Below, one piece after another: positions 23,724 through 28,998 of a stretch of 64,000 nt of DNA (its first letter is position 1; each line of letters opens with the position of its first letter). The position numbers and the translations under genes were made by a program. Below the pieces are notes generated by a model, which worked only from the letters and a program-made list of their open reading frames with translations, had not been told where the DNA came from and searched no databases. The stretch comes from Candidatus Eiseniibacteriota bacterium (lineage in GTDB: Bacteria > Eisenbacteria > RBG-16-71-46): assembly GCA_963717935.1 (NCBI GenBank), contig CAVQXP010000004.1, positions 1,472,001 to 1,536,000 of the forward strand, read 5' to 3'.

Positions 23724-26480
23724 TCAGTGCCCGCGCAGGTCCTCGAGCAGCTCGCGCTCGACCGCCGGCAGCTGGTGCACGGGCTGCCACGTGGCGATGC
23801 TCGCGCGGAAGGTCCACTCGGGGGGCGCGCGGTTCGCGATGCGCTCCCGGACCGGCGCCCACGCGGCGGCGGCGGCCGCCGCGTTCCCGGCGCGCTGCTC
23901 GGCGCCGCCCAGCACGATGCGCGCGAGGTCCGACCACGGGCCCCACTCCAGCGCCCGCCCGGCGTGCGACCGCGCGGCCGCGACCTCTCCGGTCCGCAGC
24001 GCGAGCAGTCCGCGCAGCGCCTCGGCGGTCGGATCGCCTTCGTCGAGCAGTCTCGCCTCGTCGAGTTGTCCACGGGCCGCGTCGGGCCGCCCCGCGCGCA
24101 GCAGGTCGAAGGCGTAGTCGCAGCGCAGGTCCACCACGCCGGTGCGCAGCCGCACGGCCTTGTCGTACTCCGCGAAGGCATCGTCCCAACGTCCTGCCAG
24201 AGCCAGACTTGAGGCGCGGGCCCGCAGCCCCTCCGGGCTGTCGGACTGGCGCGCGAGAACCGAGTCGGCCGCCGCCAGCGCCGCGGCCGCGTCTCCACGG
24301 ACCCACGCCAGGCGCGCGATCTCGAGGTCCACGAGACGACGGTCGTCGTCGCGCACGTCGGAGCGCATCTTCGCGGCCAGCGCGAGCGCGGAGTCGAGCC
24401 CGCGGCCCCCGTGCCAGGTGGCTTCGGCCGCCTCCGCCACGATGGCACCGCTGGCCGGCAGGGTTGCGAGCGCCCGGTCGGCGGCGGCCAGCATCTCGGG
24501 GCCGCGGTTGCCAAGGTCGAGCGCGCGCGTGAGTGACAGCAACGCGTACTCCTCGTCGGACTTCAGGGTCAGTGCCCTCTGGTAGAAGGGCACGGCCTGG
24601 TCCACCTCGCCGCGCCAGAGGCGATCGTCACCCGCGTTGACGTAAGCCACCGGGTAGCTCGCGTTCACGTCGGTCAGGGCCATGAGCCGCTCGACGAGCG
24701 CCTTCAAGTCGGCGTCCTTGCGCTCGAGCCGGCTGAGCACCTCGGGGCGCGGGTCGTAGGCGTCGCGATCCACGGAGAGCAGGGCATTGGCCCCTTCGGC
24801 GAGGTACTCCTCCACGGCGACGGCGGCGTAGCGGGAGATGAACGCATCGTGGGTCACCTCGTCGCGCGCCTTCGTCCTGCGATAGAGGTCCTGGATCTCC
24901 CGGGACTGGTCCGCCGTGAGCACCGCATGAACCTGGTGGGTCAGCTCGTGCAGGACGGTGTTGTACCTGGCGAAGATCGTCGCCTCGACGTCCTCGATGC
25001 CCGTGACCGTGTGGTAGCCGCCCGAGCCGCGCACGTCGTCCCAGAGGCGCGAGTCGTAGCTGATGCGCTGGTCCTTGAGCGTCTCCTGTCCCGGGACCTC
25101 CGAGAGCAGCATGTACATGGGCTTGATGTAGAAGTCGGCTCCGCCCGCGAGCAGCACGGGGATGAACCGCTGCCAGGGCGCGATGGACAGGGCCACGCGC
25201 TTCTGGTGGCGCGGTGAGAGCGACTTCCAGTTCACGACGAAGCGCTCGATGCCCGCCACCTCGGGCACGGGCGCGGCGGCCAGTCGCGCCTCGTAGCCGG
25301 GGCGGTGCACGTCCACGTCGAAGCGCTGGAACTGGAGCGCCTTGGCGAGGATGGCGTGGCCGCGGCCGTACTCGGGGCAGATGTGGAGCGCCGCGAAACA
25401 CCGGTCGCGCGCGGCGTCGAAGCGGCCGTCCTCGAAGTCGAGCGAAGCCAGCCGCGCGAGCGGGTCCACCCAGCCGGGATGCGCACGGCACACGGCCTCG
25501 TACGCGACGCGCGCGCCGGGGCGGTCGCCGGCGCCGAGCAGGCTGTCGGCGCGGGCCAGCACGCGTCGTCCGGCCGCGTCCGCGAAGGCGTGCGGGTAGG
25601 CGGCGTACAGTTGCGTGTAGTTCCTGCGCACGGTGTAGCCGTTTCCCCGGAGGTAGTGCGCCATGTCGGAGTAGGGGTTCAGCAGGGTGCCCCACTCGGC
25701 CGCGCTGATCGCCTCGTCGGTGCGCCCGACCCGCAGCAGCGCCTGAGCCAGGACCGTCATGGCGTCGCCGCAGGCGTTCGCCCCGACCGCCCTGAGCGCG
25801 GCGGCGAGCGCGCCGTCCCAATCCCGACGCCCGAACCTCACCTGCGTGAGCCCGATCAGGGCCGTGTCGCGGGCGGCTTGGACGTAGCGGCGCCCGGCGG
25901 CCTGCTTCGGCTGCGGTTGTCCGGTGCGCTCGAGCGCGCGGGAGTAGCAGGACTCGGCCCGCGCGAACCGCATCAGACCGCAGGCCAGGCGGCCCGCGGC
26001 GAGCAGGTCGGGGATGCTGGCGTGTTCGGCGGGCGTGGTGAGCGCGCCGCGGGTCAGCGAGTCCACTCGCGCCACGTCGTCGTGCGCGAAGAGCCAGGCG
26101 AGGACGGCCTCGCGCTCTTCCTGGGTCGGATCCGGCTGCGCGGCGATGTTCGCGAACAGCGGCGCGGCGGTGACGAAGTCCTGGCGGGCGAGGAGTGCGC
26201 GCGCCTTCACCACCGTCTCCTCGCGCGCCTCGCCCGTGAGGCGCGGCAGCGATCGGCACGCCTCGTCGATCCTGCCCGTGGCGAGAAGCAGCCGGAGCCG
26301 CCCGGGCGTCACGGGGCCCCTGGCCTGCGTCTCGAGCTGCGCGAGCCGCGCCCGGTACTGCGCCGCCACCGGCGCGAAGAGCCCGGTGTCCGCGGGGGCC
26401 TGGGCCCGCGCGTTCGCGGAAAGCGGGAGTGCCGCGGCAGTGCACATGGCCACGGTGCCGCACAGCAACGCGATCCTCAT
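23724..26480 (-). CDS. Exported TPR protein with central zincin-like domain
   Basis: Signal peptide; TPR-like repeats; VLHELTH followed by EEYLAEG. Confidence 0.7.
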   Translation of the reverse strand: MRIALLCGTVAMCTAAALPLSANARAQAPADTGLFAPVAAQYRARLAQLETQARGPVTPGRLRLLLATGRIDEACRSLPRLTGEAREETVVKARALLARQDFVTAAPLFANIAAQPDPTQEEREAVLAWLFAHDDVARVDSLTRGALTTPAEHASIPDLLAAGRLACGLMRFARAESCYSRALERTGQPQPKQAAGRRYVQAARDTALIGLTQVRFGRRDWDGALAAALRAVGANACGDAMTVLAQALLRVGRTDEAISAAEWGTLLNPYSDMAHYLRGNGYTVRRNYTQLYAAYPHAFADAAGRRVLARADSLLGAGDRPGARVAYEAVCRAHPGWVDPLARLASLDFEDGRFDAARDRCFAALHICPEYGRGHAILAKALQFQRFDVDVHRPGYEARLAAAPVPEVAGIERFVVNWKSLSPRHQKRVALSIAPWQRFIPVLLAGGADFYIKPMYMLLSEVPGQETLKDQRISYDSRLWDDVRGSGGYHTVTGIEDVEATIFARYNTVLHELTHQVHAVLTADQSREIQDLYRRTKARDEVTHDAFISRYAAVAVEEYLAEGANALLSVDRDAYDPRPEVLSRLERKDADLKALVERLMALTDVNASYPVAYVNAGDDRLWRGEVDQAVPFYQRALTLKSDEEYALLSLTRALDLGNRGPEMLAAADRALATLPASGAIVAEAAEATWHGGRGLDSALALAAKMRSDVRDDDRRLVDLEIARLAWVRGDAAAALAAADSVLARQSDSPEGLRARASSLALAGRWDDAFAEYDKAVRLRTGVVDLRCDYAFDLLRAGRPDAARGQLDEARLLDEGDPTAEALRGLLALRTGEVAAARSHAGRALEWGPWSDLARIVLGGAEQRAGNAAAAAAAWAPVRERIANRAPPEWTFRASIATWQPVHQLPAVERELLEDLRGH

Positions 26481-26643
26481 GACGGTTCCCTCGGGGTGGG
26501 CGTTCCGGGTGTCCCGGCGCGACGGCGCCAATCTAGGCGCGCGTCCCGGACAGCGTCAACGGGCACGGGGCGCCCGTCCCTCGAAGCGCGGCGCTCGTGG
26601 TTTCCGTGGCCGCCGGGCCGGGCGCTCTGCTAGTCTGCCGGAC

Positions 26644-28023
26644 ATGAAATCCTCTCTGCGTGCAGTCCCGTTGCTGGTGCTGGCCTGCGCGCTCGCGGCC
26701 TCGTCCGCGAGCCCGGCCCGCGCAGCCGCCGGCTCGAAGCCGGCCCGGAACGCCGCCGCTGGACCGCGGATGGTGCTGCCCTTCGTCCAGGACGACTACA
26801 CGCGGGCGCTCGCCGAGGCGCGTGCCCGCAAGGTGCCGCTCTTCATCGAAGCCTGGGCGCCCTGGTGACACACCTGCCGGTCGATGAGGGCCTTCGTCTT
26901 CACCGATAGGTCCCTCACGCGGCACGCCGGGCGGTTCGTCTGGCTCGAGATCGACATCGAGAAGAAGCAGAACGCGGCCCTGCGCAAGCAGCTCGGGGTC
27001 GTGGCACTGCCCACCTACTTCGTCATGGACCCGGCCAGCGAGCGGGTGGCGCTGCGCTGGGTGGGTGGCTTCACCGTCGCGCAGCTGGACCGGCTCCTCG
27101 AGGACGGTGTCGCGGCGGTCCGCGACCGGGCGACGACGAGCGGCCCGGGGGCGGCGCTCGCGCGGGCCGACCGTGCCTACGGTGAAGGTGAGGACAGCCT
27201 GGCGGTCCTCGCGTACCGCGAGGCGCTGGCCCAGGCCCCGCCGGGCTGGCCGCAGTACTCCCGGGTGGTCGAGGCGCTGCTCTTCGCGCTCGATCGCACC
27301 GGGGACTACGCGGCGGAGGCGGAACTCGCTCGCGAGGCCTACCCGCGGCTCAGGGGAACGGCATCGGGCGCGACGGTGGCGGGGAGCGGGCTGGGTGCGG
27401 CGCTCTCGTTGCCCGACTCCGCGCCGGAGCGCGGAGTCCTCGTCGGCGCGTTCGAGGCCGGGGTCCGCGAGGTGCTCGCGGACACGGCGCTGGGCATCGC
27501 GGCCGACGACCGGTCGGGCCTCTACATCGCCCTGCTCGATGCCCGCCAGAACGCGAAGGACGAGGAGGGGGCGAAGCGCGTCGCGACGGAGTGGTCCGCG
27601 TTCCTCGACGGCGCGGCCGCCCGCGCGAAGACCCCCGAGCAGCGCACGGTGTTCGATTCGCACCGGCTCTCGGCCTATCGCGAGCTGGGCCAGACCGAGC
27701 GCGCGATCCCGATGCTGGAGGCCTCCGAGCGGGATCTGCCCGGGGACTACAATCCGCCGGCTCGGCTCGCCGCGGCCTACCTGTGGATGAAGCGCTGGGA
27801 CGAGGCTCTGGCCCCTTCGGACCGGGCGCTGGCGAAGGCCTACGGGCCGCGCAAGCTCGGCATCTACTCGACCCGTGCGGACATCTTGAGCGGCAAGGGA
27901 GACCGGGAGTCGGCGCGCAAGACGCTCGAGGAGGCGATCGCCTACGCGAGCGCTCTTCCGCCCGGGCAGCGCTCGGAGAGCGCGATCGCGGGGCTCAAGA
28001 AGAAGCTCGAAGCGCTGAAGTAG
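26644..28023 (+). CDS. Exported thioredoxin-fold/TPR protein with in-frame UGA (candidate selenoprotein, UxxC)
   Basis: Signal peptide; WAPW-TGA-HTCRSM in one frame (TGA 26866-26868); ALPTY cis-Pro loop; C-terminal TPR-like helices. Confidence 0.8.
26872..26911 (+). promoter_or_regulatory. Putative bacterial SECIS hairpin
   Basis: acct/aggt, cggt/accg and gatgag/ttcgtc stems; GGCC apical loop begins 20 nt after UGA. Confidence 0.55.
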
Positions 28024-28048
28024 CCGTCGTTCGCATCGCAAGGACGCT

Positions 28049-28078
28049 CTGCGGCCGCCCCTCGACGGGCGGCCGCAG
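28049..28078. terminator. Hairpin between convergent genes
   Basis: ctgcggccgccc/gggcggccgcag 12-bp inverted repeat. Confidence 0.55.
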
Positions 28079-28080
28079 CG

Positions 28081-28998
28081 TCAGGTGGCGGGGTCGGCCG
28101 ACGGTGGTGGCGCGCTCAGCGCGGCGACGGCGATGCCCGCCAGGATGAGCACCGCGCCGCCGAGCTCGAGTGGGGTGGGGACCTCGTGGAGCAGGCCCCA
28201 GGCGAGGGCGCTCGAGCCCACGGGCTCGCCCAGGAGCGCGATGGCCACGAACGACGCGGGCAGGTAGCGCAGCGCCCAGTTGAAGCTCGAGTGCCCGAGC
28301 AACTGGGGCACGAGCGCGAGCAGCGTGAGCCATAGGTAGGTGGCGGGCGCCAGGCCGAACAGGCTTCGCCCCGTGGCCGTCAGCGCGACCACGAGCACCA
28401 CCGCGGCCATGCCGTAGACCACGAAGACGTAGGGCACGAGCGCGAGCCCCGCGCGCAGGCGGCGCCCCACCATGAGGTAGCCGGCCATCATCCAGGCACC
28501 CGAGAGCGCCATCAGGTCGCCCAGCAGTGCCCGCCCCGCCGGGCCCGCGACCGCGCGCGTCCCGCCGGCGTCGCCGAGTCCCACGATGACGCCGCCTGCC
28601 AGCGCCAGCGCGATGCCGAGCGCGAGCCGGCGCGTGAGCGGCTCGCGCAACACGAGAGGCGAGAGCAGTCCCACCCAGAGCGGCGTGGTCGTCACCAGCA
28701 CCACGGATCTCGCCACCGTGGTGCGCTCGAGCGAGGCGATCCAAAGCGCGAAGTGGGCCGCGAGGAAGATGCCCGCCAGCGCCGCGAGCCGCAGGTCCCG
28801 TGCGGTCAGCCGGGCCAGCGTCCCGCCGTGGCGCGCGAGCGCGAACGGGGCGAGCGCCAGGGTCGCGAACACGAGGCGCCCGGCGGCGATGGTGAGGGAG
28901 GAGGTGGCGGGCTGGGCGTAGCGGATGAGGATCGAGGCCGTCGAGACGGCGACGATCCCCCCCAGGAGGACCAGCAGTTGCACCGGCCGGGCGCGCAC
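28081..28998 (-). CDS. EamA/DMT family transporter
   Basis: About 10 TM; HF..W..SL..T.VA, GH..FNWAL, LLGEP motifs. Confidence 0.88.
   Translation of the reverse strand: MRARPVQLLVLLGGIVAVSTASILIRYAQPATSSLTIAAGRLVFATLALAPFALARHGGTLARLTARDLRLAALAGIFLAAHFALWIASLERTTVARSVVLVTTTPLWVGLLSPLVLREPLTRRLALGIALALAGGVIVGLGDAGGTRAVAGPAGRALLGDLMALSGAWMMAGYLMVGRRLRAGLALVPYVFVVYGMAAVVLVVALTATGRSLFGLAPATYLWLTLLALVPQLLGHSSFNWALRYLPASFVAIALLGEPVGSSALAWGLLHEVPTPLELGGAVLILAGIAVAALSAPPPSADPAT

Follow-up and report, generated by a model that had tools for sequence, protein, structure and literature searches.

A candidate selenoprotein with thioredoxin and tetratricopeptide-repeat domains in Candidatus Eiseniibacteriota, and two RNA hairpins behind its in-frame UGA

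In a stretch of 64,000 nucleotides from a Candidatus Eiseniibacteriota bacterium (assembly GCA_963717935.1, contig CAVQXP010000004.1; hereafter the window, meaning the whole stretch analysed), the open reading frames 26014..26868 and 26884..28023 lie in a common frame of the plus strand, the first of them ending on a TGA. The locus raises the question of whether this TGA ends a gene or is read as selenocysteine (Sec), and, in the latter case, which RNA structure directs the recoding. Reading through positions 26644-28023 with TGA as Sec (U) gave 459 residues, and the sole in-frame TGA was found to be residue 75, in the context FIEAWAPW-U-HTC. The original prediction for this DNA had joined the two frames into one 459-residue protein with a thioredoxin (Trx) and a tetratricopeptide repeat (TPR) domain, and had placed the single TGA at the first cysteine (Cys) of a Trx WCxxC motif. 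The frame check, the read-through translation and its length, the Pfam matches and the alignment of U75 with the first Cys of this motif in two solved structures (2kuc and DsbD-gamma) bore this out. Judged from sequence comparisons, the gene very probably encodes a selenoprotein whose UGA is decoded as Sec; the fuller claim, that recoding proceeds through downstream hairpins specific to the Sec forms, is given a probability of about 0.85.

In order to compare the codon among relatives, a six-frame search of 61 related genomes was carried out. Matches were obtained in 60 of them, and 50 loci were taken, comprising 47 orthologues and three paralogues (about 39% identity). The active-site codon was TGA in 40 of these loci and TGC or TGT in the other 10, at the same codon, and the Cys/UGA correspondence by which the original prediction was to be judged therefore holds. 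All three paralogues carry TGA at this codon. The in-frame TGA is single in each homologue of the set and falls always at the position of the redox Cys, and the Sec forms span several family-level groups, down to 39% identity. One Cys row (L042) was counted in the Sec/Cys and hairpin tallies; the protein alignment, the structure model and the tree were made without it. Across the phylum, a match at E <= 1e-60 was found in 104 of 206 genomes; among the matches spanning residue 75, one TGA was present in 79 of 105 and none in 26, the position of that TGA being confirmed only in the 40 loci above. A scan of named records gave 3 Sec and 42 Cys forms, a count that is biased towards Cys (one pattern was back-translated with a Cys codon) and was not used as a frequency.

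A tree was built from 46 rows with the active-site column masked; L042, the truncated L063 and L067 and the frameshifted L071 were omitted. The Cys forms were scattered singly among the Sec forms, which takes at least eight changes, five of them forced by well-supported branches. The simplest reading of this pattern is that Sec was repeatedly replaced by Cys; it takes the Sec-bearing paralogues as outgroup, in a tree whose root was not inferred and which does not hold the Cys forms of other phyla.

The exact window sequence was absent from public runs, the best share being 0.23. Contigs of three public runs span 26866-26868 and both hairpins, with no differences listed over 26803-26956. The contig from run X1 is 7.3 kb long and shows 89 differences in 1353 bases, and run X4 gave a contig covering 26860-26955 without differences. 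The contig of run X3, covering 26651-26962, comes from an RNA library, which alone is no proof of transcription. The TGA itself, which the original prediction had proposed to check against reads, is reproduced in all three contigs; these are independent runs and not the reads of this assembly.

The genome that contains the window (3.02 Mb in five contigs, 93% complete) was searched for the genes of Sec insertion. The tRNA-Sec scored 71.3 bits against a cut-off of 47 and was called by ARAGORN as tRNA-SeC with anticodon tca, while selA (526.6 bits), selB (308.1 bits) and selD (339.4 bits) each lay above the curated cut-off. All four genes that the original prediction had suggested looking for (selA, selB, selC and selD) are thus present. 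Among the relatives, selA was found in 54 of 61, including 31 of the 37 genomes with a Sec form and all 10 genomes with a Cys form. Sec use is therefore clade-wide, and the idea that the Cys forms are due to its loss was rejected.

The selD of this clade is itself a selenoprotein gene, with one in-frame TGA in the genomes G004, G017 and G001; the motif here is SG-U-ASK (SG-U-ASKLGP). The copy in this genome lies at G000:C4 ~1909290-1910210 (locus L018 ~1400-2340), with its TGA at L018 1440-1442, directly upstream of tRNA-Sec. The Sec insertion sequence (SECIS) of the selD of the clade served as a positive control: GGGUCC-GGC-GGACCU, a G-first triloop 17 nt after the UGA. Since this known signal is a small G-first triloop, the SelB of the clade presumably reads small G-first loops.

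Two hairpins downstream of the UGA at residue 75 were found to separate Sec from Cys forms (Table 1; columns are counted from the T of the TGA). The distal one, hairpin 2, was compared over 88 distinct stretches of 132 nt (41 Sec, 47 Cys), left from 94 collected after L105 and L118, whose frame is lost, had been dropped and duplicates collapsed. All eight pairs of its stem were present in 38 of the 41 Sec sequences, and seven in the other three, compared with all eight in 2 of the 47 Cys sequences. The loop was GUU in 41/41 Sec and 21/47 Cys sequences. The evaluated energy was -11.5 +/- 0.8 kcal/mol for Sec and -2.4 +/- 5.3 kcal/mol for Cys forms, with mean pair probabilities of about 0.9 and about 0.1, respectively. 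Over 40 Sec sequences (24 distinct), 99.0% of the cells were paired, and none of 500 shuffles reached the pairing, the number of both-side changes (5) or the covariation score. In the 10 Cys forms 67.5% of the cells were paired, a value reached by 263 of 500 shuffles.

The codon choice within hairpin 2 points in the same direction. Its Gly codon was GGA or GGG in 41/41 Sec sequences (GGA in 27), while elsewhere in the same 40 genes GGA accounts for 8% and GGC for 60%. The Val codon was GTC in 41/41 (42% elsewhere in these genes), and the Ala codon GCC in 40/41 (38% elsewhere). Since the codons used are the pairing ones and not those that the genes usually prefer, the signal lies at the RNA level. 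A compensatory change was also observed: in four sequences the pair G68-C72 is replaced by A68-U72, by an Arg to Gln exchange combined with the use of TTT, a rare Phe codon (3% elsewhere); three other Gln variants retain TTC and lose the pair 68-72. Hairpin 2 is identical in the three paralogues despite 39% protein identity. In two Cys forms, L028 (genome G006, TGT) and L082 (a named record, TGC), hairpin 2 is still intact and hairpin 1 is stable; to judge by their sequences, they appear to retain fossil SECIS elements from a recent change of Sec to Cys.

Hairpin 2 was also compared with the consensus constraints of bSECISearch, given as a loop of 3-9 nt on an upper stem of 4-16 bp, a G in the first two loop positions, a spacing of 16-37 nt and a minimum free energy (MFE) of -7.5 kcal/mol or lower (PMC13188914, legend of Fig. 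2). The loop of 3 nt, the stem of 8 bp and the energy lie within these limits, and the loop starts with G. Compared with the canonical bacterial SECIS of the E. coli fdhF type, hairpin 2 agrees in three of four constraints, its loop starting with G and then U, and differs in its spacing of 65 nt and in the Sec-specific hairpin of about 50 nt that fills the gap. No relevant family was found by Rfam over 26400-28200. It is likely that hairpin 2 is the core to which SelB binds.

Hairpin 1, which fills this gap, is the MFE fold at -24.5 kcal/mol (z = -3.0). The mean pair probability of its core helix was 0.52-0.76 in 37 Sec orthologues and 0.00 in the 10 Cys forms, and 77.1% of its cells were paired in Sec against 55.7% in Cys forms. 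The MFE over 66 nt was -28.8 kcal/mol for Sec (n = 40) and -22.3 kcal/mol for Cys forms (n = 10), with a Mann-Whitney p of 8e-4 in which the related sequences are not independent. When synonymous codons were resampled, the mean z was -1.56 for Sec and -0.14 for Cys forms, the sequence of the window itself giving -1.50. In the paralogues a like fold of different sequence occupies columns 14-55. Applied to the gapless 66-nt alignment of Sec forms, RNAalifold returned hardly any signal (-2.9), since the lower stem is not in the same register in all sequences; averaged pair probabilities were used instead. A paired phylogenetic test of this hairpin pointed in the expected direction but was underpowered (p 0.5).

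The MFE fold of 90 nt of the window sequence (-38.0 kcal/mol) places both hairpins side by side, and the same arrangement was found in the paralogues. Hairpin 1 begins 6 nt past the UGA and ends 1 nt ahead of hairpin 2; once hairpin 1 is folded out, about 15 nt separate the UGA from the hairpin 2 loop, and about 20 nt do so in the paralogues. Since a G-first loop of the selD type is offered by hairpin 2 and not by the apex of hairpin 1 (UUCACC), hairpin 2 was concluded to be the probable SelB-binding part and hairpin 1 a proposed structural spacer, the latter role being only a little better than an even bet. In the proposed mechanism, the UGA at 26866-26868 would be decoded as Sec by the SelB and tRNA-Sec of the genome, with the two-hairpin element inside the coding sequence as recoding signal. 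SelB would bind hairpin 2, which resembles the selD SECIS of the clade, and hairpin 1 would fold about 50 nt aside so that the base of hairpin 2 adjoins the mRNA entrance of the ribosome. The two hairpins may represent a class of bacterial SECIS in which a G-first SelB-binding loop, 62-65 nt from the UGA, is brought into range by a conserved spacer hairpin, a proposal that we favour slightly over its negation.

If this is true, what counts for bacterial Sec insertion is the distance in space and not that along the sequence. The SECIS search models now in use would then overlook a widespread exported selenoprotein family, and probably also some of the approximately 12.6% of selenoprotein entries that BSepDB reports without a canonical SECIS (PMC13326102). 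The rule that places a bacterial SECIS directly behind the UGA can be put to a natural test with this layout: the loop G at 26934, the core of hairpin 1 and the 1-nt junction can all be mutated and could tell linear from spatial delivery of SelB, a question that bears on the methods used to search for selenoprotein genes. A literature search on SelB, SECIS and spacing returned a list of records from which no description of a distant bacterial SECIS was evident, as far as such a list can tell.

Other structures behind the UGA have to be weighed as the binding site. The original prediction had selected a three-stem hairpin at 26872-26911. Such a structure can indeed be drawn, with a 5-bp top stem (columns 18-22:29-33), a 6-nt loop GGGCCU that has GG first and stands 19 nt past the UGA, and an energy of -13.5 kcal/mol; it agrees with all four published canonical constraints, and in Sec forms 88% of the top helix is paired. 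That helix is made of invariant coding positions, and the lower stems are 60.7% paired across 35 distinct Sec orthologues. Of the 40 Sec forms, 38 contain hairpins within the canonical constraints, and so do 9 of the 10 Cys forms; the presence of this one is therefore uninformative. The minimum-energy fold is not this structure, which excludes hairpin 1, and hairpin 1 is 11-14 kcal/mol more stable and specifically stabilised in Sec forms; moreover, the paralogues hold no counterpart. Thus the G-first hairpin of the original prediction stands as a drawable fold, its selection as the SECIS is not supported, and the elements that distinguish Sec from Cys forms are those at 26875-26924 and 26926-26944. 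A functional role of the three-stem hairpin as SECIS is considered improbable. Somewhat less so, though still unlikely, is a gene in which SelB binds the apex of hairpin 1 and hairpin 2 is accessory, for example as a stacking platform or a ribosome pause site. Hairpin 1 is Sec-specific, its apex is 30 nt from the UGA, inside the range of 16-37 nt, and the entries of BSepDB without a canonical SECIS suggest that loops without G may exist. The loop UUCACC, however, lacks G in its first two positions, the loop sequences of hairpin 1 vary between orthologues and paralogues where hairpin 2 is nearly identical in both, and the selD signal of the clade has the G-first triloop seen in hairpin 2.

Explanations without selenium fare worse. 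Were the TGA a real stop or a nonsense mutation, the locus would be a pseudogene, or would encode a 74-residue exported peptide and a 379-residue TPR protein starting at ATG 26884. Gene callers yield exactly this split, and the selD of this genome looks frameshifted. The split would, however, part a Trx fold between its active-site residues, and Met81, the supposed start, is an internal invariant residue of helix 1. The protein upstream of the TGA is conserved (A55, A59, A72 and W74 are invariant), the TGA is retained in 40 of 50 loci of several family-level groups to 39% identity, and two Sec-specific RNA hairpins follow the codon, so this explanation is regarded as extremely improbable. Hardly better is readthrough without selenium, by near-cognate insertion of Trp or Cys or under a reassigned code. 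The codon after the UGA begins with C in the orthologues, and C after UGA is a leaky termination context in E. coli. Against it, TGA acts as a normal stop codon in other genes of the genome, among them a CPPC thioredoxin-like gene at C4:309398, each homologue has a single in-frame TGA that is always at the redox Cys position, the Sec machinery is complete, and the Sec-specific hairpins would be left without a role. Decoding of the UGA as Sec, with SelB bound to hairpin 2, is the reading that is followed below.

Several observations weigh against this reading or against its recoding signal. The loop of hairpin 2 is spaced 65 nt from the UGA, and 62 nt in the paralogues, which is outside the canonical 16-37 nt and about twice the distance that this rule permits, and a 2021 review, in the part drawn on here, requires the bacterial SECIS immediately after the UGA (PMC8659212). 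In a phylogenetically paired test with five independent Sec/Cys contrasts, hairpin 2 went with Sec in about four and never in the reverse direction, giving p = 0.125. The share of the commonest codon at invariant residues was 0.79 in hairpin 2, no higher than elsewhere (0.73); the signal of this hairpin is which codons are used, not their constancy. Fixed-register covariation of hairpin 1 was weak among orthologues, the 77.1% of paired cells comparing with 76.2% in shuffled alignments and being reached by 36 of 500. On the genomic side, 6 of the 37 genomes with a Sec form (the six being 53-96% complete) gave no match to selA, and one of the 10 Cys rows (L042) derives from an unpublished genome (G038). 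Finally, the selD of this genome has one extra base compared with the copy of the congener G004, about 24 codons past its own Sec codon, resulting in an apparent frameshift, which is why the selD family match begins at model position 33. The gene is in one frame in G004, G017 (two copies) and G001, and is split also in G019; the extra base is either an assembly indel or a real frameshift, that is, a broken selD.

Some relatives of the gene were noted separately. A paralogous exported Trx-TPR subfamily with the motif W-U-Y-S-C and about 39% identity comprises L068, L069 and L070 (genomes G036, G025 and G048) and G148:C209:8302-9531; its active-site codon is likewise TGA, it shares the arrangement of two hairpins, with hairpin 2 identical, and its genomes hold both paralogues. 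Two orthologues, G032:C96:2247-3572 and G025:C152:9963-11324, have one TGA plus one TAG inside the match, and may be broken copies or matches that overrun the stop.

As for the protein, a signal peptide with a basic n-region, a hydrophobic core and AxA was recognised in all 50 loci, by eye and without a predictor. A lipobox-like motif (VLAC here) was present in 7 of 48 loci examined; lipidation is possible for the copy in the window, to go by this motif, and is no family trait. Pfam Thioredoxin_7 (PF13899) matched residues 49-130 with 45.7 bits (cut-off 27) and all 62 members of the alignment, while TPR models matched residues 347-435, with TPR in 59 of the 62. Sequence matches of the Trx domain in the PDB were 2kuc (3.9e-10), a putative disulfide isomerase, and DsbD-gamma (about 1e-7). 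U75-H-T-C78 and P123 align with the WCxxC and cis-Pro of both, and both elements are invariant in the alignment. AlphaFold2, run with the 62-row alignment, gave a mean predicted local distance difference test (pLDDT) of 91.2 and a predicted template modelling score (pTM) of 0.87, with residues 1-36 disordered. In this model a Trx fold (48-160), in which strand 66-71 is followed by helix 76-85, precedes helical repeats (167-458). For the helical part Foldseek returned generic TPR superhelices (LGN/Pins, designed CTPRs) at template modelling (TM) scores of 0.45-0.54, and no solved sequence relative spans the C-terminal domain. This domain contains the invariant motifs DDRS (288-291), FDSHR (337-341), DYNPPARL (368-375) and YGPR (400-403), of which D338, R341, Y369, N370, R374, G401 and P402 are retained in the paralogue. 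Such conservation suggests a specific binding surface.

The genome also encodes a full DsbD and a CcdA-like protein. It holds five Thioredoxin_7 domains, with a TGA only in the gene at 26644-28023. A second Trx-like match with a TGA, at C4:309398-309814, was rejected, as it is an ordinary CPPC protein whose TGA is its stop codon. The signal peptide would send the product across the inner membrane, where the Trx domain would pack against the TPR superhelix of about 290 residues. Sec75 would act as the attacking nucleophile and Cys78 would resolve the selenenyl-sulfide; a client might be held in the TPR groove, with electrons probably supplied via the DsbD/CcdA system. A role as periplasmic thiol-disulfide reductase or isomerase is given even odds.

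Several known systems share parts of this design. Selenoproteins with a Trx fold and a UxxC motif, such as Sec-thioredoxin (PF00085), the "thiol:disulfide interchange protein" (PF13098) and Trx7/PDZ (NF041199), are described in the available part of a 2026 review (PMC13188914), which lists many such families. They have in common with the present protein the fold, Sec at the N-terminal position of CxxC, Cys homologues, a SECIS in the coding region and a predicted role as thiol-disulfide oxidoreductase. Here, in contrast, a signal peptide and Trx_7 are followed by a TPR superhelix with its own invariant motifs. The terms "TPR" and "tetratricopeptide" are absent from the accessible text of that review, and likewise from that of the main article on BSepDB, whose supplementary family list lies outside this statement. 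PF13098, the sole definition of the "thiol:disulfide interchange protein" row in the review, scored 23.4 bits, below its cut-off of 27, and none of the NCBIfam 20.0 selenoprotein models reached its cut-off, the best being seleno_TsoB with 30.7 of 805 bits. A full-text literature search gave nothing joining selenoprotein with Eisenbacteria, nor selenocysteine with tetratricopeptide and UxxC. Among solved structures, the Trx domain is closest in sequence to DsbD-gamma and 2kuc (profile E-values 1.1e-16 and 3.1e-10). Both align with it in WCxxC and cis-Pro, but they use Cys and not Sec and lack TPR repeats, and a membrane domain is linked to DsbD-gamma.

The YbbN/CnoX chaperedoxins (3qou, 3qdn; PMC10998233, as far as its accessible text goes) have the same domain order, Trx then TPR, and both structures were in the Foldseek list. 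The present protein differs from them in being exported, to judge by its signal peptides, and not cytoplasmic, in a TPR domain about three times longer and in the lack of a sequence match at family level. The structural agreement was at TM 0.19-0.30 with an rmsd (root-mean-square deviation) of about 25 A (3qou: E 1.3e-4, TM 0.19/0.30, rmsd 25.5 A). With its most likely function, that of a periplasmic thiol-disulfide reductase or isomerase holding a client in the TPR groove, the protein would be an exported analogue of the chaperedoxins, outside that family. GroEL cannot be the partner of an exported protein, because GroEL is cytoplasmic.

The way in which databases store the gene was evaluated with the best 120 database homologues. 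Of these, 79 are forms of 376-393 residues that span residues 81-459 only and are mostly named "TPR repeat protein"; the gene is thus cut, as the original prediction had expected of standard gene callers. The 40 full-length Cys homologues are named thioredoxin family protein, DUF255 protein or (JGI) thioredoxin-like negative regulator of GroEL. The truncation is uniform across databases because the ATG at 26884-26886, taken by callers as the start of the 379-residue protein, is the codon of Met81, the invariant internal Met of helix 1 (C-R-S-M). A protein of about half of the genomes of the phylum (104/206) is thus stored in truncated form, with its redox domain and its selenium dependence invisible. 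The nearest named records (84-87% identity) are Candidatus Eisenbacteria metagenome-assembled genomes, and homologues were common in metagenomes (3102 at E <= 0.001 among 8000 candidates scored). With this gene, an uncultured lineage in which selD is itself a selenoprotein would gain a Sec-dependent thiol oxidoreductase that is exported and probably periplasmic.

Table 1. Positions of the features of the candidate selenoprotein gene in the window
Feature	Position	Strand	Details and basis
Whole selenoprotein gene (candidate)	26644..28023	+	459 codons plus TAG stop at 28021-28023; one in-frame TGA
Signal peptide, about residues 1-27 (cleavage site not predicted by tool)	26644..26724	+	MKSSLR n-region, hydrophobic core, VLAC at 12-15, ARA at 25-27
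Thioredoxin-fold domain, DsbD-gamma-like, residues 48-160	26785..27123	+	U75-H-T-C78, cis-Pro P123; Pfam, PDB matches, model
TGA read as Sec, residue 75, N-terminal nucleophile position of CxxC	26866..26868	+	alignment with Cys homologues; contigs of runs X1, X3 and X4
Three-stem hairpin, loop GGGCCU	26872..26911	+	alternative fold, mutually exclusive with hairpin 1; within canonical constraints; not Sec-specific
Cys78 codon TGC, resolving partner in U-x-x-C	26875..26877	+	invariant in the 62-row alignment
Hairpin 1, long and imperfect, core helix GAGGG/CCCUC, apical loop UUCACC	26875..26924 (columns 10-59)	+	MFE, pair probability
Hairpin 2, GCCGGGCG-GUU-CGUCUGGC, 8-bp stem, G-first triloop at 26934-26936	26926..26944 (columns 61-79)	+	encodes AGRFVWL; 65 nt after the UGA
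All-helical TPR superhelix, residues 167-458	27142..28017	+	alignment, model, Foldseek, Pfam

The genes adjoining the selenoprotein gene are functionally unrelated to it, and their retention is limited to the closest relatives, at 3 and 5 of 74 loci. A scan for promoters and terminators gave nothing that could be assigned to this gene. Between the convergent ends of the selenoprotein gene and an EamA transporter gene, a perfect 12-bp GC-rich inverted repeat was found at 28049-28078 (CTGCGGCCGCCC / GGGCGGCCGCAG, with a 6-nt loop); it was not listed by the terminator scan because it has no T-run. On the other side, a divergent neighbour of 935 residues is encoded at 23724-26531 on the minus strand. 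Its Pfam matches are TPR models only, and it has a central HExxH-like motif, HELTHQVH, which may conceal a metallopeptidase-like domain.

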